From: an uncultured delta proteobacterium
Lineage (GTDB): Bacteria > Desulfobacterota > Binatia > UBA9968
Assembly: GCA_963728565.1 (NCBI GenBank)
Contig: CAVSLC010000022.1
Span: 32,495-96,494 of the forward strand
Direction of reading: 5' to 3'
Length of the DNA: 64,000 nt
The notes under the pieces were generated by a model. It was given only the letters and a program-made list of their open reading frames with translations, made no database searches and was not told where the DNA came from. How positions within the stretch are numbered: position 1 is the first letter of the stretch; every line of letters begins with the position of its first letter. Below, one piece after another: positions 43,758 to 61,864 of this stretch. The translations under genes were made by a program, and so were the position numbers.

Positions 43758-44850
43758 TCGGCGCCTCATTTCACATTTCGATTGGCCTCTGTTTCTTCTA
43801 ACCCTTGCCTTCGTCGGCATGGGGATCGTGACCATCTATAGCGCCAATTACGACATCGCGGCGGAGCATGCCGGAGGCCTCCCTTCGCGTCAGCTCCTTT
43901 GGCTGGGGCTGGGACTCGCGGTTATGTTCACCACGATTGCGTTTGATTACCACTATGTCGATCGGCTGGCATATCCGTTTTACGGGTTAATCTTGCTTCT
44001 GCTGATATTGGTTTTCTTCGTCGGACATTCAGGAGGTGGCTCGCAGCGCTGGATTAATCTCGGGTTCTTCAGACTGCAGCCCTCGGAACCGGCAAAACTG
44101 GCCATTGTCTTGGTGATGGCGAAATACTTTCAAGATAGCGAGCCGTCGCGCGGCTATTGTCTACGTGATCTTTGGGCGCCCTTCGCATTGGTTGCGCCGC
44201 TAATATTACTGACGCTAGTTCAGCCTGATCTTGGCACTGCGATTATTCTCGGCTTGGTTTTTATGAGTATGATGCTGATCGGCGGGTTGCGGATAAAGTC
44301 ATTTCTCGGTTTGGCCGCTGCCGGGCTGGCGTTTTTGCCAATTGGATGGAATCTCCTATGGCCTTACCAGCGACAGCGTGTGCTGACATTTTTTGATCCT
44401 GATCGTGATCCGCTGGGTGCGGGATACCACGTCATTCAATCACAGATTGCGATCGGATCGGGAAGGATGTTCGGCAAAGGCTACTTGCACGGTAGCCAAA
44501 ACCGGCTGGATTTCTTGCCGGCTCAGCATACTGATTTTATCTTCGCAGTGTTTTCCGAGGAGTGGGGCTTTGTCGGCTGTTTCGTTTTGCTTGCCTGTTA
44601 CTTTGCCATGATGGTCTATTGTCTTAAGCTCTTTGAACGAGCCAAGGATCGATTCGGCGCGCTGTTAGTATTCGGCATGGTGGCAATCCTGTTCTGGCAT
44701 GTGGTGATCAATGTGTCGATGGTGGCGGGCTTGATGCCGGTAGTGGGCGTCCCGCTGCCGCTATTCAGCTATGGCGGGTCGGCACTGGCGTCAATGATGT
44801 TCGCAGTCGGCATGATGATAAACGTCAGTATGCGCCGCTACACTTTCTGA
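43747..44850 (+). CDS. rodA: Rod shape-determining protein RodA
   Basis: QPSEPAK, QPDLGT, HTDFIF, SYGGS. Confidence 0.96.
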   Translation: MQIDRRLISHFDWPLFLLTLAFVGMGIVTIYSANYDIAAEHAGGLPSRQLLWLGLGLAVMFTTIAFDYHYVDRLAYPFYGLILLLLILVFFVGHSGGGSQRWINLGFFRLQPSEPAKLAIVLVMAKYFQDSEPSRGYCLRDLWAPFALVAPLILLTLVQPDLGTAIILGLVFMSMMLIGGLRIKSFLGLAAAGLAFLPIGWNLLWPYQRQRVLTFFDPDRDPLGAGYHVIQSQIAIGSGRMFGKGYLHGSQNRLDFLPAQHTDFIFAVFSEEWGFVGCFVLLACYFAMMVYCLKLFERAKDRFGALLVFGMVAILFWHVVINVSMVAGLMPVVGVPLPLFSYGGSALASMMFAVGMMINVSMRRYTF

Positions 44851-44989
44851 GAAGAGCGGGTCCGAGCAGTCCGTTTTGCCAAGTCTAGCGATTCGACCAT
44901 GAAGACGATGAGCGCTCTGGACGGAGCGCCGGCGGTAAAGCTGATTCCCGCTCGAATCGAGTTATCCCTTCAACAAATCCCGTATCTTT

Positions 44990-45316
44990 CTATTGTAGGG
45001 CTTTGTCGATTGCGCTCACCAATTTTGCTTTGGGCACGGCGCCCACGATCTGTTCCTTTACCGCGCCGCCCTTGAGAATCAGCAGATTTGGGATACCGCG
45101 AATGCCGTATCGCGATGCTGTAGCGGGATGATCATCGACGTTGAGTTTAGTTACTTTCAGTTTGCCTTCGTACTCTCCGGCGATTTCTTCGACAATTGGC
45201 GCGATCGACCGGCATGGACCGCACCAAGGCGCCCAGAAATCGACCAGCACCGGCACGCTACTTTGGATCACTTCAACCTCGAAATTGTTGTCGCCAACTT
45301 CGGTGATTTTTCCCAC
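44990..45316 (-). CDS. trxA: Thioredoxin
   Basis: DFWAPWCGPC; GTG start after an AGGAG RBS. Confidence 0.95.
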   Translation of the reverse strand: MGKITEVGDNNFEVEVIQSSVPVLVDFWAPWCGPCRSIAPIVEEIAGEYEGKLKVTKLNVDDHPATASRYGIRGIPNLLILKGGAVKEQIVGAVPKAKLVSAIDKALQ

Positions 45317-45333
45317 GATGGTTGTCTCCTTTT

Positions 45334-46813
45334 CTAAACGGTCATAAGAAATCTCAGCAAGGTGCGCACGCCAAATCCGGTTCCGCCCTTGGGACAAGTG
45401 GCAATGTCGCGGTCGGTATATGCGGGCCCGGCGATGTCGAGATGGGCCCAGGGAATCTCTTCAACGAACTCTTGTAGTATCAGGGCCGCGGTTATCGCGC
45501 CGCCATGGCCGCCGCCAATATTCTTGATATCGGCAACGCTGCTCTTGATGTCCTCGCGATACTCTTTGACGAGCGGCAATTGCCAGAGCTTCTCTCCCGA
45601 TTCCTGCGCGCAGCGCATGACTCTCTCCGCGAGAGCATGGTGGTTACTGAACATACCGGCCACCTGCGTGCCCAAGGCGACCATGCAAGCGCCGGTCAAG
45701 GTAGCCAAATTGATCATGTAATCCGGCTTTTGTTTAGCGGCTAGCGCCAAAGCATCGGCAAGAATCAAACGGCCTTCGGCGTCGGTGTTCAAGACCTCGA
45801 TGGTTTTGCCATTAAGGTAACGAATGACATCGCCGGGCTTCTGAGCGTTGGGGCCGGGCAGATTATCCGTCGTCGGGATGTAGCCGATGACCTCAACTGC
45901 CGGACGCAGCACCGGCAGCCGACTCATGGCGGCAATGACCGCCGCGCCACCCGCCATATCCAGTTTCATAGTCTCCATAGACTTGGACGGCTTGAGCGAT
46001 AGCCCACCTGAGTCGAAAGTGATTCCTTTACCGATTAGGGCGATTTTCTTCCTAGGTTTACCCGCCGGCTTGTAATGAATCGTTATGAAACGTGGCTCTT
46101 CTTGACTGCCGCGATTAACGGCCAAGAGCCCCGCCAACTTCATGGATTCGATTTTCTTTTTACCCCAGACGTCCACAGACAGGCCGCGGCCGCGACAGTG
46201 ACGCTCCGCCTGTTCGCCTAAATATCGCGCCGTAGTGACCGAGGGAGGCTCGTTGATCAAATCGCGCGCTAAGAAAACCGCGCCGACAGTTTGTTCAGTA
46301 ATGCGCACCGCCTGATCCATACCGCTGCTGCGACTCAGCCCCGGTTTATGGAGCGTGAGAGTCTTAACCCCTAAAGGGTTCTTGGCGTTGGAGCGGTATT
46401 TAGTGAACTGGTAAGAAGCCAGCAATGCTCCCTCGACGATTGCCGCGGCAGCGCCAGCGGGATCTCGTTCGGGAGAGAAAAAAAATCCGATATCCTCAAC
46501 CCCAAGCGCGGTGGCCTCTCGTCTGGCCCGCGCTCCGGATCTACGCCAAATTTCAGCATCTACATCCGCCGCCTTACCGAGTCCAATCAGCAGCAGATTT
46601 GCTGCAGGGAGCACTCCGGCCGTCGAGTAGAGCAGGCTGGCGCCTTCAGTTCCGGCAAACTTACTTTTCTGGATGCGCTCCTGTAGCTTTCCCTTTAATC
46701 GCCGGTCCAGCGCGCGAATGCTTGTCTCTTCAAGCCTCTTCTCGGAAACAGGCACCACCAAAAGGTCGGTCTTCAAACTTTCCGGCCCGATGTCTTTGAA
46801 TCTAACTGTCCAT
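45334..46813 (-). CDS. pepA: Leucyl aminopeptidase (frameshift near the start)
   Basis: GKGITFDSGG, MKLDMAG, NTDAEGRL, WAHLDIAG. Confidence 0.95.
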
Positions 46814-46823
46814 AGAGCTTCGG

Positions 46824-47390
46824 TTAACCTCGTTGCCGAATCAGCGTCATAAATTCATTTCGAGTTTCTTGCCGATTTTGAAAAGCGCCAAGCAACGTGC
46901 TGGTGATCACCATCGAATTTTGCTTTTCCACGCCACGCATTCTCATGCATAGATGTTCGGCTTCTATCACTACCGCGACTCCCAATGGATCAAGCTTTTC
47001 CATGATGATCGTCGCTATCTGATTGGTCAATCGTTCCTGAACTTGCAGGCGGCGCGCATAGATATCGACTAAACGCGCCAGTTTGGAGATGCCGACGATT
47101 TTGTGATGCGGGATGTACGCCACGTGTGCTTTGCCGAAAAAAGGCAACATGTGATGTTCGCAAAGAGAAAAGAAGTCGATATCTTTCTGAACGATCATCT
47201 CTTGGTAGTCCTCGGTGAAGAGGGCATCGTTGATGACCTTTGCCGGATCCATGTCGTAACCTCTGGTCAGGAAAGTTAGCGCTTGAGCAACGCGGTGCGG
47301 TGTTTTGACCAGCCCTTCCCGCTCCGGATCTTCGCCCAGGGACTTCAAGATGAATCGAATCTGCTCTTCCATGCTGTTGTCAGTCTCCAT
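46824..47390 (-). CDS. folE: GTP cyclohydrolase I
   Basis: [28 protein letters not shown]. Confidence 0.96.
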
Positions 47391-47508
47391 GTTTTCCGGC
47401 TTAAGGCGCTTGGCGAGGTTGACGATTGAAAAGCAATTTGATGATCGCAAAAAGCTAACATTTAGCCACAAGCAGGTCAAATATTGGTAAAGCTCTAAGG
47501 AGCAGCGG

Positions 47509-48246
47509 CTAAAGTCTTTTGAGCAACCAGTCAGGGGTGAAACGTAACGCATAAATGTTCAGCATCGTCATGTAGTCGGTTATCAAGAGCAGGCCGACAA
47601 TCACCAGCAAGATTCCTCCCGCGATATGAAATGCTCGGATATAGCGACGAAATGATTGTGAGAATCGCATAAATGAATTGATGGCCACCGCGCTCATAAA
47701 AAAAGGCAGACCAAGGCCCGCGGCATAGGTGGAGAGCAGCAGAGTGCCGCGGCCGATTTCTCCCGAAGTTCCGGCTAAAGCGAGAATGGCGCCGAGAATC
47801 GGCCCGACGCAGGGCGTCCACGCCACCGCGAAGGTGATGCCGACCAAGACAGAACCTAAGTAACCGGCCGGCTTATCCCGTAAATTGAATTGCAGATACC
47901 GTTCGAGCGCCGGGATCTTGATAAGACCTATCAGATACAGTCCGACCAGTAGAATGAAGAGACCACCGACGATGCGAATACTATTGCGATAGCCGAAAAA
48001 CAGGCTGCCAAGAAAACTGGCGGATACGCCGAGGGAAATAAACACCAAAGAGAAACCGGCGATGAAAGCGACGGAATTGAGCACGACGCGCGCGCGGACT
48101 CGTTTGAGTGTTTGATCATGGCGCATATCTTCGAGAGATACGCCGGATATGAACGACAGGTACGACGGAATCAGCGGTAGAACGCAAGGCGAGAGGAACG
48201 AAAAAATACCAGCGGCAAAGGCGACAAAAACGTTAACATCGCTCAT
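47509..48246 (-). CDS. ccdA: Cytochrome c biogenesis protein CcdA
   Basis: [10 protein letters not shown] and [10 protein letters not shown]. Confidence 0.93.
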
Positions 48247-48812
48247 CTTTTTCCATCGAGGAGATCTTTGATGAGGTTACGGGCTGCGGCGCTATACCAT
48301 TCCGCCGGTCCCCATGCGCGCGCCAATCCTTCGCCTTTAGGCCCAATCAAATAGGTCGTCGGCAATCCCCAGGCGCCGTAGAGTAGTCCTACCTGAGCAT
48401 CCGAATCGATGACGATAGGATAGGAGAGCTTTAGTTCCTTGGCAAAATTTATTGCGTCCTGCTTGCGATCTTTGACATTGACCGCCAGAACCACGAAGTT
48501 CTTTTCCTTAAATTCCTGGTAAAGCTTTTCCATGGCCGGCATCTCTTCGCGACATGGGACGCACCATGTCGCCCAGAAATTCAAAAAAACCAATTTGCCG
48601 CGAAAATCTTTCAACGAGATTTTCTTGCTAGCGAGATTCGGCAAAGTGAAATCCGGCGTCGGCGCTTGATCTTTCATCGCCTCCAAATTCGGAATGGCCT
48701 TGTAATTGATCTTGCCCTGAGCCCAAGCGTAGCTCGAAGCCGTCGACAGGAGCGCCGGTATGATTAGCAGCAACAAAAGCGATCGGCTAGGAAACGGATA
48801 ATTCATAGCCAT
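48243..48812 (-). CDS. TlpA-family disulfide reductase
   Basis: NFWATWCVPCREEMP; signal anchor; next to ccdA. Confidence 0.92.
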   Translation of the reverse strand: MAMNYPFPSRSLLLLLIIPALLSTASSYAWAQGKINYKAIPNLEAMKDQAPTPDFTLPNLASKKISLKDFRGKLVFLNFWATWCVPCREEMPAMEKLYQEFKEKNFVVLAVNVKDRKQDAINFAKELKLSYPIVIDSDAQVGLLYGAWGLPTTYLIGPKGEGLARAWGPAEWYSAAARNLIKDLLDGKR

Positions 48813-48992
48813 GACTGTAGCGAACTGGCTGAATCGACGCAATGTCCGGAATTGTGTTGAAGGTCTGAGTAACCTGGTTCTCCGCATGCGCCATCGGGCG
48901 TCCATCGTAGATCTAGAGTGTATGATCGCGATCAGCTATCGATGCGTGATGCACATAGGCTGGTTCTGAATGGAGAGATTCGGTTGAGATAC

Positions 48993-49028
48993 AACAAAAA
49001 CAAAGCCCCCCGGCAATCACCGGAGGGC
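48993..49028 (-). terminator. Rho-independent terminator
   Basis: GCCCUCCGG-UGAUUG-CCGGGGGGC followed by UUUGUUUUUGUU. Confidence 0.8.
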
Positions 49029-49114
49029 CTGTTTTCGAGATAGCCAGAACGACTATCTAGCCGCCTGAGAGTCTAGGAGGGTTTATCCACCACAACCCCA
49101 CATCAAAAAAACAG

Positions 49115-49168
49115 TTACTTCTTTTTCTTCTTGGCTTTTTTCTTTGCCGCTTTTTTCTTAGTTGCCAT
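49115..49168 (-). CDS. 17-aa lysine-rich peptide MATKKKAAKKKAKKKKK
   Basis: AAGGAGGT RBS at 49180-49173; ATG..TAA; own promoter and terminator; below the ORF-track cutoff. Confidence 0.75.
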   Translation of the reverse strand: MATKKKAAKKKAKKKKK

Positions 49169-49278
49169 AGGCACCTCCTTTTAGGATTCGGCGGGCGGGC
49201 TGTATCGAGGGGAGTTAAAGCGTGACTCAGGCGAAGAGAAGTAGAACAGAAACCCTCCCATATTTTGTAGCTGACCGG

Positions 49279-49308
49279 ATTATAAAGGCGCTATAAGTTG
49301 TATGTCAA
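49279..49308 (-). promoter_or_regulatory. Perfect-consensus sigma70 promoter with upstream AT-rich UP-like tract
   Basis: TTGACA-N18-TATAAT; A/T tracts at 49309-49350. Confidence 0.85.
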
Positions 49309-49661
49309 GAAAAAAATACCATTTTAGAAAACATTTTTTGAATTTTTTCATTTCACGGCAAAACAAAATCGCTTCTGAATATCGGTTGAACACGTTAGAT
49401 TATTTCTTTTGAGAAACGAACAGAATGTTTTATTCAGCTATCCACAGGTGACTTGCCGCTTTACAAGGCAGTAGGGTTGGCACACTTTCTCATTGAGCAG
49501 CAAACCCCGGGCGGCGATTTAGAAATTTAGATCCGTCCTAATTCAGGGAAATCACCATGGCCAGCCGGATCACTTGGATGATCTTCGCACACGAGCAGGA
49601 ATGCTATACAGCCAAACCTTACACTGAGAGACGTTGAACGGTTCAGCCAATGAAACAAGCT

Positions 49662-51009
49662 CTAGCCGAGCTGTAAAGCTTTAATCAGCTTCAGTAGATG
49701 AGTTCTATGCAATCCGAGAGCCTTGGCGGCGGCTGCGCGATTGCCACCGGCCTCAGACAGCGCCTTCAGGATCAGGTCGCGCCGGTGATGATTGATTGTA
49801 TCGTGATAGGATTTCGCTATCGGCAGTTGTATGGGTTGGCTTTAGACCGGCGATGCGCGCCGGCAGCAGGTCAATGGTCAGAACGGGACCGTCTCCGAGA
49901 ACTACTGCGCGCTCGATTACATTGGCTAGCTCGCGCACATTTCCGGGCCAATCGTAGGCCATGAGGGTTGCTTCCGCGTCGTCGCTGATTCGCGAAAATA
50001 GCTTCTTGGTTTCAACAGAAAATCGCTGTAAGAAATGGGCCGCCAGCTCGGAGATGTCTTCACGGCGTTCCCGAAGGGGAGTGAGGATGATCGGAATGAC
50101 GTTTAGCCGATGATAGAGATCCTCACGAAACGTGCCATCGCTCACCGCTTTGTCGATATTGCGGTTGGTTGCCGCAACGATTCTCACATCCACGCTGATC
50201 TGGTGTGTTCCGCCGACGCGCTCGAACTCGCGCTCTTGTAAAAACCTCAGAAGCTTGGCTTGAAGTTCCGGGGAGATATCGCCAACCTCGTCAAGAAAAA
50301 TCGTTCCACCGTCGGCTAGCTCGACTCTTCCTTTCTTTAACTGGTGCGCGCCGGTAAATGCGCCTTTCTCATGACCGAACAGCTCGCTTTCCAAAAGATC
50401 TTTGGAAAGGCCTACGCAATTGATCGGTATAAACGGTGCTGATTTTCTTTGACTCCAATTGTGGATTGCTCTGGCAAAAATTTCCTTGCCGGTGCCGCTC
50501 TCGCCGAGCAGCAGAACCGTGGATTTGCTGACCGCAGCTTTTTGGGCCTCACTCACCGCCCGCGCCATCGATACGCTTTTGCCCTGAACCATCTTAAAGC
50601 GAGCGTCGAGCTGTTCGGAAAGAATCTCTACTTCTTCACGAAGCCGGGTCCGCTCCAGCGCTTTTTTCACTACGATGGCGAGGTGATCAGGATCGAACGG
50701 CTTGGTAAGAAAATCTTCGGCGCCCTCCTTCATCGTCTCTACCGCCCGCTCGATGGTACCATGGGCGGTGATGATGACCACCGGAGTGTCGAGGCCTTTT
50801 CGCCGGATTTCTTTTAGCACTTCCAGACCATTCATGCCGGGCATCATGTAGTCGAGCAGAATCAGATCGGGTTGAAATCCGGGTAACTTCTCCAGAGCCT
50901 CCTCGCCACTGGCGCAGGTTGCAATCGAATGGCCCTGATCCGCTAACTCTTGCTCCAGCAGGTCTAAGTTAAAGGGCTCGTCATCGACGAGTAAAATTCT
51001 ATGTGCCAT
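49662..51009 (-). CDS. Sigma-54-dependent NtrC-family response regulator (frameshift near 49815)
   Basis: REC domain; GESGTGKE, ESELFGHEKGAFTGA, WPGNVREL; Fis HTH GNRAAAAKALGLHRT in the shifted frame. Confidence 0.93.
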
Positions 51010-51029
51010 TGCTGATATCGGACGGCTGG

Positions 51030-51059
51030 ATTGTAGGGTCGGGCTGGGAAGAACGTCAA
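51030..51059 (-). promoter_or_regulatory. Sigma70-type promoter
   Basis: TTGACG-N18-TACAAT. Confidence 0.55.
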
Positions 51060-51135
51060 GTTCTCGCTAGGGAAAGCGGGACGGACGGAGATTTTTAAAG
51101 TGAGTCTCCACGCTGACTGGATTGCTTTTGGTCGT

Positions 51136-52224
51136 TCACGATTTGAGTTTAACTATATTGAAAGCAGCGACGGCCCGGCTAAAGCCCTTGAGATGCAACT
51201 CCTCGCAAGCTTCGAATTCGACCAGGTCTTCGACTTTGCTCAAGGTTCTCTGATTGGTCAGAATCTGCCCGCCCTTGGCCTCGTCGCAAAGGCGCGCCGC
51301 AAGATTGGTGACGTTACCCACCGCGCCGTAATCCATGCGGCCCTCGAAGCCGATGTTTCCCAAGGTTGCATAGCTGGCGGCCAGGCCGATGCCCAAATCT
51401 AGATCGTAACCTTTCTTCATCCAGCCACTGCGAAGCTCTGTGCTTCGGCTACGCATCTCAACGGCCATACGAATCGCCCGCTCGGTATGATCCTCGCACG
51501 GTATCGGGTCATTGAAGAAGATCATGATGCCATCGCCGGCGAAGCGCTCTAGGGTGCCTTCGTATTTAAATACCAGCTTGCCCATTGCGGCGTGATAAGT
51601 TCGCAGCAATTCCATGACCTCTTCCGGTTCGGCGCTATCGGAGAACGCGGTAAAGCCGCGCAGGTCAAGGAACACCACCGTGATTTCGCGCCGGTGGGTT
51701 TTGAACAAGCTCTCATCATTGCTCTCGATCAAAGTATCGGCGATTTGCGGGGAAAGGTACCGCTTCAGGCGCTTCATGCGCTCAATCTCGCCAACCTGTT
51801 GTTCGACTTTTTGAGCCAGTGTCTTGTTCAGGTCCTCCAAAGAATCGTGCAGCTCTTTTATGCGCAGCATCGAACGGACTCTGGCCAACAGCTCGAATGC
51901 ATCGAACGGCTTGATGACGTAATCGTCGGCGCCGGCGTCCAGACCGGTGATCTTATCTTCCTGCGCCGCCTTCGCCGTGAGAAGTATCACCGGAAGGCTG
52001 CGCCATTTCTCGTCGGCTCGAAGCCGCTTCAGAACCTCCAGCCCGTTCATCCTCGGCATCATATAATCGAGGAGCACGACATCCGGTACAAAGGCCGGCA
52101 GTTTTTCGAGCGCCTCAGCGCCGTCACTGGCTCTTTCGATCTCGTAGCCTTGCTCCTGCAACTCTTGCTCGAGCAGATCGAGATTGAATGGTTCGTCGTC
52201 GACGATCAGAATTTTGTTGGTCAT
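51136..52224 (-). CDS. Response regulator fused to a class III adenylate/guanylate cyclase
   Basis: REC domain plus VFLDLRGFT, FAGDG, GNVTNLAARL. Confidence 0.93.
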   Translation of the reverse strand: MTNKILIVDDEPFNLDLLEQELQEQGYEIERASDGAEALEKLPAFVPDVVLLDYMMPRMNGLEVLKRLRADEKWRSLPVILLTAKAAQEDKITGLDAGADDYVIKPFDAFELLARVRSMLRIKELHDSLEDLNKTLAQKVEQQVGEIERMKRLKRYLSPQIADTLIESNDESLFKTHRREITVVFLDLRGFTAFSDSAEPEEVMELLRTYHAAMGKLVFKYEGTLERFAGDGIMIFFNDPIPCEDHTERAIRMAVEMRSRSTELRSGWMKKGYDLDLGIGLAASYATLGNIGFEGRMDYGAVGNVTNLAARLCDEAKGGQILTNQRTLSKVEDLVEFEACEELHLKGFSRAVAAFNIVKLKS

Positions 52225-52290
52225 GAGCGTATCGCTTATACAGTTTTCGATTTCAATCGGGAGTTGCTTCTGCTCGGCTCAACTCAGGCA

Positions 52291-52659
52291 TCAATCGAGA
52301 AATTTCCTGATCTTTTTCAACAATTCGTCTTCATCGATAGGCTTCGGCAGGTAATCATCGCAGCCAGCCTTGCGCGCCTCAACTTCGTCGCCCGCCATCG
52401 CATGGGATGTTACGGCAATAATCGGAATATGCTTTAGCTCATCGTTAGCTTTTATTTTGCGCGTCGCTTCCCAGCCATCCATGACCGGCATGCCGAGATC
52501 CATCAAGATGAGGTCCGGCCTTTCGGATTGCGTTTGTTTGAGGCCTTGGGCGCCGTCCTCGGCGATAACTAATTCAAACTCGTCTTCAAGCAGTTGCACC
52601 ACTAAATCGCGATTGAATTCGGTGTCATCGACAACAAGTATTTTTTTCTTTTTTCCCAT
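52291..52659 (-). CDS. Single-domain response regulator (DivK-like)
   Basis: LVVDD, LMDLGMP, AVTSHAM, YLPKPI. Confidence 0.92.
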   Translation of the reverse strand: MGKKKKILVVDDTEFNRDLVVQLLEDEFELVIAEDGAQGLKQTQSERPDLILMDLGMPVMDGWEATRKIKANDELKHIPIIAVTSHAMAGDEVEARKAGCDDYLPKPIDEDELLKKIRKFLD

Positions 52660-52765
52660 AGGTTCCTCGCTGGCAGAGCTGAATTTAGACTGCGGTGAAT
52701 TCTTCCATACCAGCTCGCGATGTTTGTTGTTCCCTGCGGCTCCCAAATCGAAAACTCGAAGCTGT

Positions 52766-55169
52766 TCAGTTGTTCTGGCTGAGCGGCAGGGTGATGGTAA
52801 ACTTTGAACCCTTGCCTACTTCGCTCTCGACGCCGATTTCGCCGCCGAGCAAATCAATGAGTCGCTTGACGATAGCCAACCCGAGTCCGGTTCCGCCGTA
52901 TTTTCTAGTCGTCGACATGTCCACTTGGCGGAACTCATCGAAGATATAATGCAAGGCGTCTTTGTTCATGCCGATTCCGGTGTCGGAAATAGCCAGCTTC
53001 AGCGAACCGTTCTCCGACCACGCGGCTACCTTGATTTCTCCTGCTTCGGTGAATTTAGCCGAGTTGCTCAAGAGATTGAGAATGACTTGTTTCAGTTTAT
53101 CCCGGTCTGTTTTGATCGCCGGAAGCTCGGGAGAGATCTCAGTAACGAGTCGCACGTTGCCATTTCTGAGCATCGGCTCGACCGTCGCGGTTGCAACCCG
53201 GACTACGTCATCGATCTTGAATGTCTCGGCATACACTTCCATGCGGCCAGCTTCGATCTTGGCTAAATCCAAAAGACCGTTGATCAATTTGAGCAAGTGT
53301 TCCGCGCTGACCAGCACTTTCTGCAGATTTTCTTTCTGCAGCTTTTCGATCTGTCCCTCGATCTTTCGCAGCACGAGCCGGGTAAAGCCGATGATCGAGT
53401 TCAGCGGTGTGCGCAGCTCATGGCTTACGTTCGCCAGGAACTGCGACTTATGCCGGTTGGCGGCTTCGAGCTGTTCATTCTTTTCTTCGAGCTCTTTGAA
53501 GAGACGAACGTTCTCGATGGCAATGACGGCCTGATCGGCGAATGTTTTGAGCAGGGCAATTTGACTTTCCGTAAATGGTTGGGTTTCTCTGCGGTAAACA
53601 ACAATCGCGCCGACCAGATTATTTTCCTTGAGCATGGGCACCGCGAGAACGCTCCGTATGCCCTCCTTGCGGTATTCTTCCGGCGGGTTCCAATTAGGAT
53701 CCGCATTAACATCAGGGATGTGAACCATCTTCCTTTCGAGCCCAACGCGACCGACTGCGGTTGTCGGATCCGGCGGAAATGATCGATCCGCCAATACAGT
53801 CATATGCGGCGAAACATATTGAGCCGTAACCAGGCTGAAAACCTTTCCATCAAATCTAAAAATTGCGCCGTAGTCGGAGCTGCCCAAACGTGTGGCGTTG
53901 GCGAGCATGGTTTCGAACACCGGTTGCAGGTCTCTCGGCGAGCTGCTGATAACGCCCAAAACCTGGCTCGTTGCCGTCTGTTGCTCCAAAGATTCGGTGA
54001 GCTCCTTGGTACGCGCTTCGACTTTTTGCTCCAAATTGGCATAGGACTCCTGCAGCTGAGATGTCATCTTGTTGAACTCGTCGGCCAGTATCTCCATCTC
54101 ATCGCCGGTTTTAAGATCGAGCCGGTAAGCCAGATCGCCGCTACCGATCCGTTCGACACCTTGGCGCAAGAATTCTGACCGGGCGAACAACCCGGCGCGC
54201 TAAGAACAGGCTGGCGATGAGAGCCATGCCGAGACCGATCATGAAAAGCGTCGAGGTTCGAATCATCGAAGCATAAAGCGCCTCGTAGGCTTCTTCGACC
54301 GGCCGCTCGAGCACCACCGCCCAGTCTAGAGTTGGGATCAAGGCGAACGAGCTGAGCACATCTTTGCCTTGCAGATCGGCGGCGACAATTGCGTTGGACG
54401 CCGCGACAACGGGCGTGTTTGGTCGAAACGCGGCTCTGGCCTGTTCCAGGTGGAGCACATTGCGGCGCTGCAGCACAAGGCTGATATCCGGATGGGCGAT
54501 TAACTCGCCGGATCGACTGATCGTATAAGCGTGGCCTGCTTTGCCCACGCGGATATTGGAAACAACGTCGCCGATGTATTTCAAATTAACTTCGGCCTGA
54601 AGCACCCCGATGACGTCGCCGGCAAACCGCTCGATGGGCACCGCAATGGTCATATAGGGTTCTGATCCGCGAACGAAATAAACCTGGCCGAAGTAGGATT
54701 TACCTTGCCTTGCTTGACGGAAGGATGGCGAGGTGGAGAGGTCTTTCTTGGCGTCCGGTAAAACCGTGCGCAATCGCGATGCCTGCACTTGGATAGTACC
54801 GTTTTCGTCGACCGCAAGCGCCTCAGTCACCGCCGGCGCAATGATCAAGAGTTTCTCTAATTCAAACCGAAATTCCGGCGTCAAACCTTTCGGCGCGATA
54901 TCGCGACTCTTGGTGGCTCCTTTCAAGATGTTATGAATCTCCTGAACGAACTGTTCGATCTTGAAGGCGGCGCCGGCGGCAATTTCCTTCTGAAGCAGAG
55001 CGAGCTGCTCTTGGCTCTCCTGATAGCGAAAATAGATCTCGACCAGGCCGCTGGTGATCAAGCCGCCGCCGATCAGCAGCACGGAAATCAAGAAATAATC
55101 GCGCAGCAGCCGTTCGCGCCGGCGACGCACGCCAAAGCTTTTCAACACGGGCAAATCACGCAGCTTCAT
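52766..55169 (-). CDS. Membrane sensor histidine kinase: TM-Cache-TM-HAMP-GAF-HisKA-HATPase (frameshift near 54180)
   Basis: Cache-like AYTISRSGELIAHPD; HAMP; GAF LKTFADQAVIAIENVRL; SHELRTPL; NLLSN; DTGIG; GGTGLGL. Confidence 0.9.
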
Positions 55170-60753: not shown

Positions 60754-61864
60754 CGCTTTTTCTTTCCGGCGCCATCCATTCCCCACAGTTTTCCACCATA
60801 AGCCGGACGAGCGCGTGAAATTGGGGATCGCAGTTGAGCGGCTCGCAGTCCGCAGCTATTTTTTTGAGGCAATCAGACTCAAGCAAAGACTTCAGTGCCG
60901 GATCGTCGCGCAAGGAGACTCCGGCCAACCGTAGCCAGGCACACCAGTCAGCGCAGAGCTTTGCCATCTCGGGGCTATCGAGTTTTCCCGCCCTCCAGAG
61001 CTGCAAATATTCGTAGCAAGTTCTAAAGTAACGCGCGCGAGTTTCTGGACCTTTTCCGCTGATTGTGCGTCGAATTCGGTCAACCGCCGTCCTGATCGCG
61101 ACTTGGATCTGCCGTGCACAGTCGGGGTTCTGCTCTAAGACCCTTGCCAGGCTGCGGAAGAATCGCGCCCAGCACCTGGCAACGTCATCGGTCACCGGAC
61201 GGGAAAAGAATTCTTCATCCATAACATGCGGATTAACCCGCCAGACTTTTACTTCGTCAATATCTCCGTCCCAGTGAGTATCATTCCCCTCCGGCTCGTT
61301 GCCGATGCAGACGCCCAACGGCCCCACTGACGGCACCGTTCCCAGCAGATTAGTGCGCCGCGCTATGAGCTGACCATCAGCATAAAGCTCCATCGTGTCG
61401 AACCCGTTATGGGTAAAGCTTAACGTGACCCATTTACCGTAGGGAACTAGATACTCCTGAAAGCCGGGCGAACCCATGGAGTTCAGTCCATCGCTGTTCT
61501 GTAACGGGTAAGTCGATGTGCCGCGAAACGAAGCGAACAAAGAATGGTTACTGATAAAAAAGCTAAACGAATTGTGACCGGCGATGAGAGTTTGATGATC
61601 ATCCAGCAGGATAGGAGAGATACGGCGGCGCGCGGTCACTTCTACTTTAATCCCGCCAAGAGATCGCCAACTGTTGCTCGCTGGTACGTATATCCGGCTG
61701 CCGCTCTTCGAGAAACGAAGCGCGCCCGAATTGGGCGCGACGCCGTTTTTCAAGAACTGCGTATCAATTGCCTGTCCATGGTTGTCGTGATCGGATAAAT
61801 CAACCGGCAGGCCGTCCCATCCTGCATAGACGTGATGGCAGATCAGTTCGAAAGTTGCATTCAT
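60743..61864 (-). CDS. LamG/concanavalin-A-like domain protein with Cys-rich helical C-terminus
   Basis: DLSDHDNHG, GKWVTLSFTH..LYADGQ, IG..WDGDIDEVKVW. Confidence 0.75.
   Translation of the reverse strand: MNATFELICHHVYAGWDGLPVDLSDHDNHGQAIDTQFLKNGVAPNSGALRFSKSGSRIYVPASNSWRSLGGIKVEVTARRRISPILLDDHQTLIAGHNSFSFFISNHSLFASFRGTSTYPLQNSDGLNSMGSPGFQEYLVPYGKWVTLSFTHNGFDTMELYADGQLIARRTNLLGTVPSVGPLGVCIGNEPEGNDTHWDGDIDEVKVWRVNPHVMDEEFFSRPVTDDVARCWARFFRSLARVLEQNPDCARQIQVAIRTAVDRIRRTISGKGPETRARYFRTCYEYLQLWRAGKLDSPEMAKLCADWCAWLRLAGVSLRDDPALKSLLESDCLKKIAADCEPLNCDPQFHALVRLMVENCGEWMAPERKSDAS

Follow-up and report, generated by a model that had tools for sequence, protein, structure and literature searches.

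A 64,000-nt stretch of DNA from an uncultured delta proteobacterium of the Binatia (assembly GCA_963728565.1, contig CAVSLC010000022.1, positions 32,495 to 96,494; hereafter the window) carries a minus-strand transcription unit whose open reading frame (ORF) has only 17 codons, most of them for lysine. The ORF lies under the 20-aa floor of the ORF listing of the window and was therefore missing from it. Comparison with relatives indicates that this gene is real, conserved and very short, and that it encodes a lysine-rich peptide. On balance, we lean to the interpretation that it is a genuine small gene whose product is a polycation, unspecific for sequence, that binds and compacts polyanions, and that the fold of its messenger RNA (mRNA) stabilises the message or gates its translation.

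A sequence-only reading of the window had described a stand-alone gene here, with an A/T-rich tract, a perfect promoter, a ribosome-binding site, a poly-lysine ORF and an intrinsic terminator. All of these parts were recovered on the minus strand by sequence reading and scans (Table 1; the unit is read from 49350 to 48993). The leader of about 100 nt and the 3′ untranslated region (UTR) of about 90 nt given there also agree with our figures. We infer a transcription start near 49272, about 7 nt past the -10 box, which would give a leader of about 104 nt and a transcript of about 280 nt; the stop codon and the terminator are 84 nt apart. The peptide MATKKKAAKKKAKKKKK has 11 Lys and 4 Ala in 17 aa, with AAA and AAG codons mixed. 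A GTG two codons 5′ of the ATG is in frame (MPMATKKK...), but it lies inside the Shine-Dalgarno sequence (SD).

Table 1. Coordinates of the unit and of the genes downstream of it (positions in the window, unless a locus is named).
Feature	Position	Strand	Basis or remark
A/T-rich UP-like tract	49350-49309	minus	ends in conserved TAAAATGGTATTTTTTTC immediately 5′ of the -35
Sigma-70-type promoter TTGACA-N18-TATAAT, 12/12	49279..49308	minus	consensus scan
-35 box TTGACA	49308-49303	minus	18-nt spacer to the -10
-10 box TATAAT	49284-49279	minus	sequence read
5′ leader, about 104 nt	49169..49272	minus	start predicted from the -10 box
5′ strand of helix A, GGGAGGGTTT	49250..49259	minus	partner 49084-49075; part of the single-sequence minimum free energy (MFE) fold
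5′ strand of long-range helix B, CGCCTGAG	49226..49233	minus	partner 49069-49062; RNAalifold
SD AAGGAGGT	49180-49173	minus	4 nt 5′ of the ATG
ORF MATKKKAAKKKAKKKKK plus TAA, 17 codons	49168-49115	minus	ATG 49168-49166, TAA 49117-49115
G/U-rich tract GATGTGGGGTTGTGGTGG in the 3′ UTR	49087..49104	minus	conserved in the order
3′ strand of helix A, AAACCCTCCT; CCUCCU complements the SD	49075..49084	minus	anti-SD look-alike, putative function
3′ strand of helix B, CTCAGGCG	49062..49069	minus	RNAalifold and pair counts
Hairpin, 8-bp stem, conserved GUUCU loop	49038..49058	minus	RNAalifold and covariation
Intrinsic terminator, 12-pair stem (8 G-C), then T tract	49030-49003, T tract to 48993	minus	terminator scan
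tlpA-like thioredoxin and ccdA genes, co-directional downstream	47509..48905	minus	Pfam matches; read-through inferred
Hydrolase genes of relatives	L080:1997-2803; L075:1997-2818; L059:3233-4114; L044:1999-2844
Hydrolase genes of L088 and L093	L088:539-1327; L093:555-1322

The expression signals of the unit are unusual for this genome. A scan of positions 44000-54000 found six promoter-like sites (7.0 expected), and the only one that matched the consensus at 12 of 12 positions was the promoter of the unit. Its terminator ranked first among 17 terminator-like sites in the same interval. In the whole assembly (4,529,011 bases, 28 contigs, 80.55% complete), there were two perfect TTGACA-N16-18-TATAAT sites, compared with about 0.76 expected from base composition. 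The other one (TTGACA-N16-TATAAT) lies on the minus strand of contig C19, at about 61502-61529; an ORF that begins with MAIGELLRARGIITDEQLQTVL follows about 130 nt downstream. The unit is single-copy, and the assembly contains one SD-led small ORF rich in Lys and Arg. When 26 relatives were aligned, the tract ending in TAAAATGGTATTTTTTTC was nearly invariant, the -35 box and its flanks were invariant, and conservation resumed at CTACAAAATATGGGAGGG directly after the -10 box; the last was also seen in an alignment of 60 sequences. Other families of the class have a related A-tract with TTTCCAAAAYG upstream of the -35. This upstream motif is unique in the assembly. As no extended promoter motif was found elsewhere in the genome, there seems to be no co-regulated gene set.

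We surveyed the unit in 40 relatives using a 328-nt blastn query and counted only matches with E values of 1e-12 or better, because a laxer tally (E up to 1) includes chance matches. Strong matches were obtained in 22 of the 24 other genomes of f1, the family of the window, and in all five genomes of its sister family f2. The two f1 genomes without a match have fragmented assemblies, with 750 and 870 contigs. No match was found by blastn in the 11 genomes of f3, a third family of the same order, and scans of five f3 genomes with two patterns did not find the unit either; the single f3 candidate from these patterns was an ordinary longer gene and was rejected. The matches were 67-99% identical over nearly the full query, comprising promoter, leader, ORF, 3′ UTR and terminator.

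The sequence-only reading had proposed a search of related genomes for a syntenic short MA(T)KKK ORF upstream of tlpA-ccdA. Relatives do keep an MA(A/T)KKK ORF in this syntenic place. All 26 full-length homologous stretches retain AAGGAGGT, the ATG and a K-rich ORF of 12-19 aa (MA(A/T)KKKAKKK...), and AAGGAGGT and ATGGC are invariant across the 60 aligned sequences. Two of the genomes, G018 and G012, are flagged as unpublished; of the 60 rows in the alignment two are theirs, they account for two of the 22 f1 genomes with a strong match, and none of the claims rests on them alone.

A pattern scan of public genomes (one per species) added 56 loci, giving 59-61 distinct units in all. The commonest peptide was MAAKKKAKKKAKKKKK, found in 19 of 59. 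The public titles of the 56 loci are mostly Candidatus Binatia or 'Deltaproteobacteria' metagenome-assembled genomes (MAGs). A few unit-bearing records are titled Chloroflexota, Verrucomicrobiia, Eisenbacteria, Myxococcales or Syntrophobacter (L030, L064, L075 and L047 among them) and show the same NtrC/tlpA/ccdA synteny; the genome of L047 belongs to the class of the window. These deviant titles are probably coarse or wrong labels, or mis-binned contigs. Loci L053 and L056 are near-identical copies of the unit on two contigs of one MAG, with flanking genes alike, and a strain duplication in the bin is more likely than a true paralogue. Among 401 genomes sampled from the phylum, a strict pattern matched three, all of them in the class. 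A looser pattern matched 14, of which 11 were outside the class; judged from the matched strings, these 11 resemble unrelated gene starts.

The ORF varies in the way expected of a translated sequence. Among 49 unique ORF DNA sequences, Lys was encoded by AAG 293 times and by AAA 213 times, and all four GCN codons were used for Ala (79, 53, 43 and 13). In 515 all-purine codons, G occurred 0, 9 and 296 times at the first, second and third positions, respectively. Glu codons were never present, and Arg was confined to the C-terminus. In the class of 16-aa ORFs (n = 17), variable sites fell 1, 1 and 14 times on codon positions 1, 2 and 3; 13 codon columns varied only synonymously and one altered the residue. 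Length changes stayed in frame. The sequence-only reading had suggested looking for synonymous-only variation, and nearly all changes in the 49 ORFs are of this kind. Because the variation is almost purely synonymous, the comparative evidence indicates that selection maintains Lys and Ala in a translated ORF, so that its residues matter. At the third position of the AAR codons only A or G occurs, a restriction that an ARN-type purine RNA motif would not impose; this also argues for translation. The order of AAA and AAG codons keeps A-runs short (mean longest run 5.98 compared with 7.37 in 1000 within-ORF shuffles, none of which was as low), although this test overstates independence because the sequences are related.

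The unit extends beyond the order with a longer product. When the divergent locus L047, from another family of the same class, was used as the blastn query, matches were found in 30 of 121 class genomes, covering the SD and ORF only. We read 31 such loci in other families of the class, and 28 of them share the layout of the unit. An A-tract with TTTCCAAAAYG, TTGAC and a TATAMT box are followed by a G/U-rich leader and then by a CTCGCCTGAG-like segment as one helix strand; AGGAGG stands 4-9 nt before ATGGC, which opens a Lys/Ala-rich ORF; past the ORF, the unit closes with a CTCAGGCGAG-like segment as the other helix strand, then a small G+C hairpin and lastly a terminator. The ORF has 24-36 aa in 20 of these loci (e.g. 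MAAKKKAKKAKKKSKAKKKAPSKKKGSKKK) and 78-126 aa, with KKKAAP, KKKAV or KKKAT repeats, in eight. Of the remaining three, two lack such an ORF and one encodes a different protein of 200 aa with a K/A tail. Judged by these comparisons, the 17-aa peptide stands at the small end of an H1-tail-like polycation family that gains and loses repeats across the class, a group of uncultured soil bacteria.

Some genomes of the class (loci L092 (G441:C80), L094, L113 and L115) also encode a protein of 200 aa whose N-terminal half contains Cys and His and whose tail consists of AKKKAAPKKKAV repeats. It is separate from the repeat-only proteins of 112-126 aa that belong to the family itself. H1-like tails are therefore present in more than one gene of these genomes.

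Database searches gave little for this family. The 17-aa peptide is too short for profile tools, and hmmscan of four homologues (27-117 aa) against Pfam and NCBIfam, with E up to 1, matched no family. None of 10 homologous proteins was present in a protein collection searched by exact look-up. A homologue search with the 117-aa form returned four weak, unnamed matches among 8000 scored candidates. In the ESM Atlas, one 30-aa homologue is present letter for letter. The clusters nearest to it are unnamed 'hypothetical proteins' of 22-43 aa, and the nearest named cluster carries PF07382 (HC2), where a score of 0.80 makes it a lead only.

Four roles had been suggested in the sequence-only reading: a protamine- or H1-tail-like nucleoid peptide, a ribosome-associated peptide, a counter-ion for polyphosphate or RNA, and a Lys-tRNA-sensing ORF. 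The first is the one we favour over other readings, because the homologues are Lys/Ala(/Pro/Thr) repeats of 24-36 and 78-126 aa. The ORF length range of 12-126 aa speaks against both a fixed ribosomal protein and a Lys-tRNA-sensing leader. Tiny basic ribosomal proteins such as eL41, bTHX and bL36 do resemble the peptide in size, charge and strong expression signals, and a micro-protein of this manner, made together with ribosomes from a strong promoter resembling those of ribosomal RNA, or a peptide retained in the exit tunnel would suit a very small and very basic product driven by a strong promoter with an UP-like tract. The CCUCCU of the 3′ UTR resembles the 3′ end of 16S ribosomal RNA and could be an autoregulatory mimic. 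However, those proteins are fixed in length and sequence, as expected where a protein fits a pocket of ribosomal RNA, whereas the Binatia family varies tenfold in length by gain and loss of repeats. Moreover, the unit was never beside ribosomal protein genes in the loci examined, and it was not found in f3. A ribosomal role thus seems quite unlikely.

The RNA of the unit is also conserved. We folded an alignment of 60 sequences from the order with RNAalifold and counted helix pairs over 59 distinct sequences. In the consensus, CGCCUGAG in the leader pairs with CUCAGGCG in the 3′ UTR (helix B), and the hairpin and the terminator are predicted as well. In helix B, 99.2% of the cells are paired and six of the eight pairs never vary within the order. 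Compensatory changes were found at seven of the eight pairs of the hairpin, whose loop GTTCTGG is at least 90% conserved, and at six of the nine counted pairs of the terminator. For the whole structure, none of 500 shuffles equalled the observed value on four of five measures and no more than one did so on the fifth; all slid controls scored lower.

At the class level, a helix anchored by CCUG and CAGG was present in 80 of 86 unique units. Its flanking pairs change in a compensatory way: C-G 61, U-A 7 and U-G 6 at the first position; G-C 76 and A-U 2 at the second; A-U 66, G-U 8 and U-A 1 at the third. The G-U pairs imply that pairing takes place on the sense RNA. Where the anchor is missing, other complements occupy the same place, for instance GUUUCGUCG pairing with CGACGAAAC, or GGCGAAGGG with CCCUUCGCC. 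The version at one locus is 16 bp long, and a separate RNAalifold alignment of nine sequences from another family gave a version of 14 pairs. In a search for ungapped stems, the helix between leader and 3′ UTR was the longest complement in 20 of the 33 units examined. RNAduplex comparisons of leader and 3′ UTR gave long, messy duplexes with z values from -2.7 to +1.7 and were useless as a test. As the leader and the 3′ UTR are both conserved and mutually paired, the unit is, on this comparative evidence, a structured RNA, in which a 5′-3′ helix of 8-16 bp encloses the SD and the ORF. The sequence-only reading had overlooked this pairing.

A further helix, A, joins GGGAGGGUUU and AAACCCUCCU in the order of the window; 91.4% of its cells are paired and covariation is scarce. 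It is also part of the single-sequence MFE fold. Its 3′ strand complements the SD (AAGGAGG with CCUCCUU). Helices A and B cross, so that they would form a pseudoknot or alternative structures. In the MFE fold, the G/U-rich tract of the 3′ UTR can pair with a C-rich part of the leader (49200-49190); other families of the class have an equivalent tract, but within the 5′ leader. Rfam, whose families include 6S RNA and known small RNAs, gave no match at the gathering score in the window. The best match reached 24.3 bits, compared with a gathering score of 43 bits, and covered the terminator only. Nothing was found in Rfam for seven class-level loci, and ARAGORN predicted no transfer-messenger RNA gene.

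These observations raise the possibility that the RNA is the main actor, as a structured riboregulator or a dual-function small RNA, with translation of the ORF being secondary and serving, for example, to tune stability or conformation. The unit has its own terminator; conservation across two families is at least 90% in its leader, 3′ UTR, GUUCU loop and 5′ CUACAAAAUAUGGGAGGGUUU; there are the crossing helices A and B and a look-alike of the anti-SD; and the ORF has shrunk to 12-19 aa exactly in the order that has the extra RNA elements. Nevertheless, codon-level purifying selection, the invariance of SD and ATG, and the expansion of homologous ORFs to 126 aa are difficult to reconcile with a secondary ORF. 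No Rfam family matches. Such RNAs usually act with Hfq, which PF17209 detected in none of 31 genomes of the order (20 of them at least 90% complete), while control genomes matched. We therefore regard a primary role of the RNA as unlikely. An Hfq sponge or class II-like small RNA was considered separately, as AAR repeats and a U tail are present, but it was rejected because PF17209 was not found in these same genomes.

Sequencing runs were searched for evidence of transcription. With the 3.5-kb stretch around the unit as the query, 24 runs contained 12-46% of the sampled words, and 11 of them are recorded as RNA libraries, with at most 23%. Four soil metatranscriptome runs from four studies, all stored as contigs, were compared with the stretch, and all four have contigs over the unit. 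These span 48990-49595 in run X2, 48887-49340 in X4 and 48526-49149 in X6, where the contig bridges the terminator into tlpA. In run X1, the bin 49138-49254 had a depth of 1153 compared with 0-25 in most other bins, although these depths cannot rank genes and uncovered parts carry no weight. Transcription of the unit is plausible on these data.

In the mechanism that we favour, the near-ideal promoter would transcribe the gene and the perfect SD would drive its translation. The product would be a Lys/Ala peptide of 17 aa, probably shortened to 16 aa by removal of Met before Ala. This peptide is the shortest form (12-19 aa in the order) of a class-wide, Lys/Ala-rich, H1-tail-like family, in which the longer forms (78-126 aa) would have arisen by repeat expansion. 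Most likely, in the manner of H1 tails, the KPAA domains of AlgP and PhaF, and chlamydial Hc2, it would bind and compact nucleoid DNA in the first place, and possibly polyphosphate or RNA. The genome has three genes of the HU family and one PPK1; with both present, DNA and polyphosphate cannot be told apart as partners. The fold would stabilise the tiny mRNA, gate its translation, or both, possibly through feedback by the peptide, and a fraction of the transcripts would run on past a partial terminator into the downstream genes.

Several points weigh against the polycation and its structured message. With three HU genes, a further nucleoid protein is not obviously needed, and a peptide of 12 aa may be too short to act like a tail of 150 aa. 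As no family model matches the longer homologues, the link to H1 and AlgP is one of composition and not of homology. The unit is dispensable in f3, since it was not found there. The UTRs are conserved at least as much as the ORF, which would also fit a function at the RNA level. Regarding the fold, helices A and B cannot both form in a simple nested structure. As they are near-invariant in the order, their support there comes from complementarity and not from covariation. The single-sequence fold had a z of only -1.67, with 12 of 200 shuffles folding at least as well. Finally, contigs from three of the four RNA runs cross the promoter or the terminator, and such contigs do not reveal the level of a transcript, its strand or its ends, and DNA may be present in the libraries.

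The claim that the gene stands alone fared less well than the gene unit itself. In the window, the unit is followed in the same direction by tlpA-like, ccdA, folE (GTP cyclohydrolase I) and pepA-like (M17 peptidase) genes, identified by Pfam matches, which begin 88 nt after the terminator. Among 52 distinct units with at least 1700 nt of downstream sequence, tlpA was directly next in 29, tlpA or ccdA followed further on along the same strand in 21, and neither was present in two. In four of these 21 loci, which were examined, the spacer was an alpha/beta-hydrolase gene about 45 nt past the terminator. Two loci of another family have a weakly similar hydrolase gene about 30 nt past it (28% identity over 54 aa, pairwise E = 5e-7), and the neighbour in a third family is a convergent phosphoadenosine phosphosulfate (PAPS) reductase gene. 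As the next co-directional gene of relatives begins tens of bases past the terminator, the unit may head an operon, with a terminator that leaks. A hydrolase gene that starts 30-45 nt past the terminator has little room for a promoter of its own. This suggests that the terminator is partial, and the unit would then be the first, over-expressed cistron of the operon. Overall, no functional partner is constant among the neighbours in the loci examined, and none of these neighbours has to do with lysine.

The alpha/beta-hydrolase gene itself (256-294 aa; Abhydrolase_6/Abhydrolase_1) occurs 30-45 nt past the terminator in many relatives and is missing in the genome of the window; it had no NCBIfam match near the cut-off. 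Upstream of the unit, also on the minus strand, the window encodes a sigma-54-type response regulator (49753-51009; receiver, AAA+ and lid, with no DNA-binding domain at E 0.001) and a receiver-adenylate/guanylate cyclase (51136-52224). Either the one or the other is also found upstream of the unit in many relatives.

The same arrangement recalls the attenuators of trp, his, leu and thr operons, where a short ORF rich in one codon family precedes a terminator and co-directional genes. The ORF, with Lys at 11 of its 17 codons, might accordingly be a leader peptide, with ribosome speed deciding the fate of the strong terminator and thereby controlling tlpA-ccdA-folE-pepA or, in relatives, the hydrolase gene. 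The short distances from the terminator to the next gene and the RNA-library contig that bridges it are consistent with such control. However, the downstream genes are unrelated to lysine and differ by family (tlpA, alpha/beta hydrolase, convergent PAPS reductase), and homologous ORFs reach 126 aa. The stop codon precedes the terminator by 84 nt, and a covarying hairpin lies between the two. Covariation in the arms of the terminator is free, and no alternative partner conserved for them was seen. No mutually exclusive antiterminator/terminator pairing that overlaps the ORF end was predicted in the consensus folds, and helices A and B do not involve the terminator. The long, structured leader of 104 nt is also unlike those of classical attenuators. 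We thus consider attenuation highly improbable.

If the polycation reading holds, it can be taken further, although we find the extended form unlikely. The peptide would be an abundant polycation, the shortest chromatin or condensate protein known, and its own pseudoknotted mRNA would sense its level. Free peptide would bind the 5′-3′ helices and the G/U-rich tract, so that the anti-SD look-alike AAACCCUCCU would leave its 5′ partner GGGAGGGUUU and cover the SD. This would stop translation, with the terminator metering read-through into the operon. The peptide could also be a general RNA-annealing chaperone in a lineage where no Hfq was found.

Lys/Ala-rich, H1-like proteins are already known from bacteria. 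One report describes AlgP and PhaF of Pseudomonas as having KPAA-repeat, H1-like tails that bind DNA, places AlgP on polyphosphate granules, and gives AlgP 352 aa, including a folded N-terminal domain of 124 aa (PMC9239181). In PhaF, the tail is joined to a phasin domain. The likeness is an analogy of composition: both groups are repetitive, disordered, Lys/Ala(/Pro)-rich polycations, with KKKAAP, KKKAV and KKKAT in the longer Binatia homologues, and the genome of the window has PPK1. In contrast, the Binatia proteins consist of the tail alone, down to 12 aa; their ORFs begin with MA(A/T)KKK and have no other domain, there is no detectable sequence homology, and the structured mRNA has no counterpart described there.

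Chlamydial Hc2 condenses DNA and has lysine-rich pentamer repeats whose number varies between strains (PMC2848022). Lysine-rich repeats of variable number are shared with Hc1/Hc2 (hctA/hctB), the family to which the Atlas lead points. However, Hc2 has 165-237 aa, and its profile, PF07382, is not matched by the Binatia homologues of 27-117 aa. Expression of hctA is under post-transcriptional control by a small RNA acting in trans, whereas the RNA structure of the Binatia unit is in cis. The tail at the C-terminus of eukaryotic H1 and the protamines are similar in composition and in their presumed charge-neutralising action. This is analogy only, as they belong to another domain of life; the Binatia peptide has no globular domain and only 12-19 aa. 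Among the papers listed in searches of the open-access literature, nothing on lysine-rich small ORFs or polylysine nucleoid proteins matched, and none of those on Binatota concerned small RNAs or peptides. A stand-alone version of 12-36 aa under purifying selection thus appears to be undescribed, as does a class-wide regulatory chassis with a covarying 5′-3′ helix around the ORF.

A gene this short is invisible to annotation, yet it has one of the two perfect promoters of its assembly and is under clear purifying selection across the class. Covariation supports the long-range 5′-3′ helix that encloses its ORF, an apparently new RNA motif that no Rfam family matches; the host organisms are uncultured, yet the motif is amenable to study in a heterologous host. 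Should the peptide be made in quantity, a bare run of about ten lysines would suffice for a conserved cellular function, and nature would offer a minimal model of how H1 tails, protamines or AlgP-type proteins neutralise the charge of DNA, polyphosphate or RNA. The family would then also illustrate how gain and loss of repeats lengthen and shorten such proteins, between 12 and 126 aa, while the regulatory chassis stays conserved.

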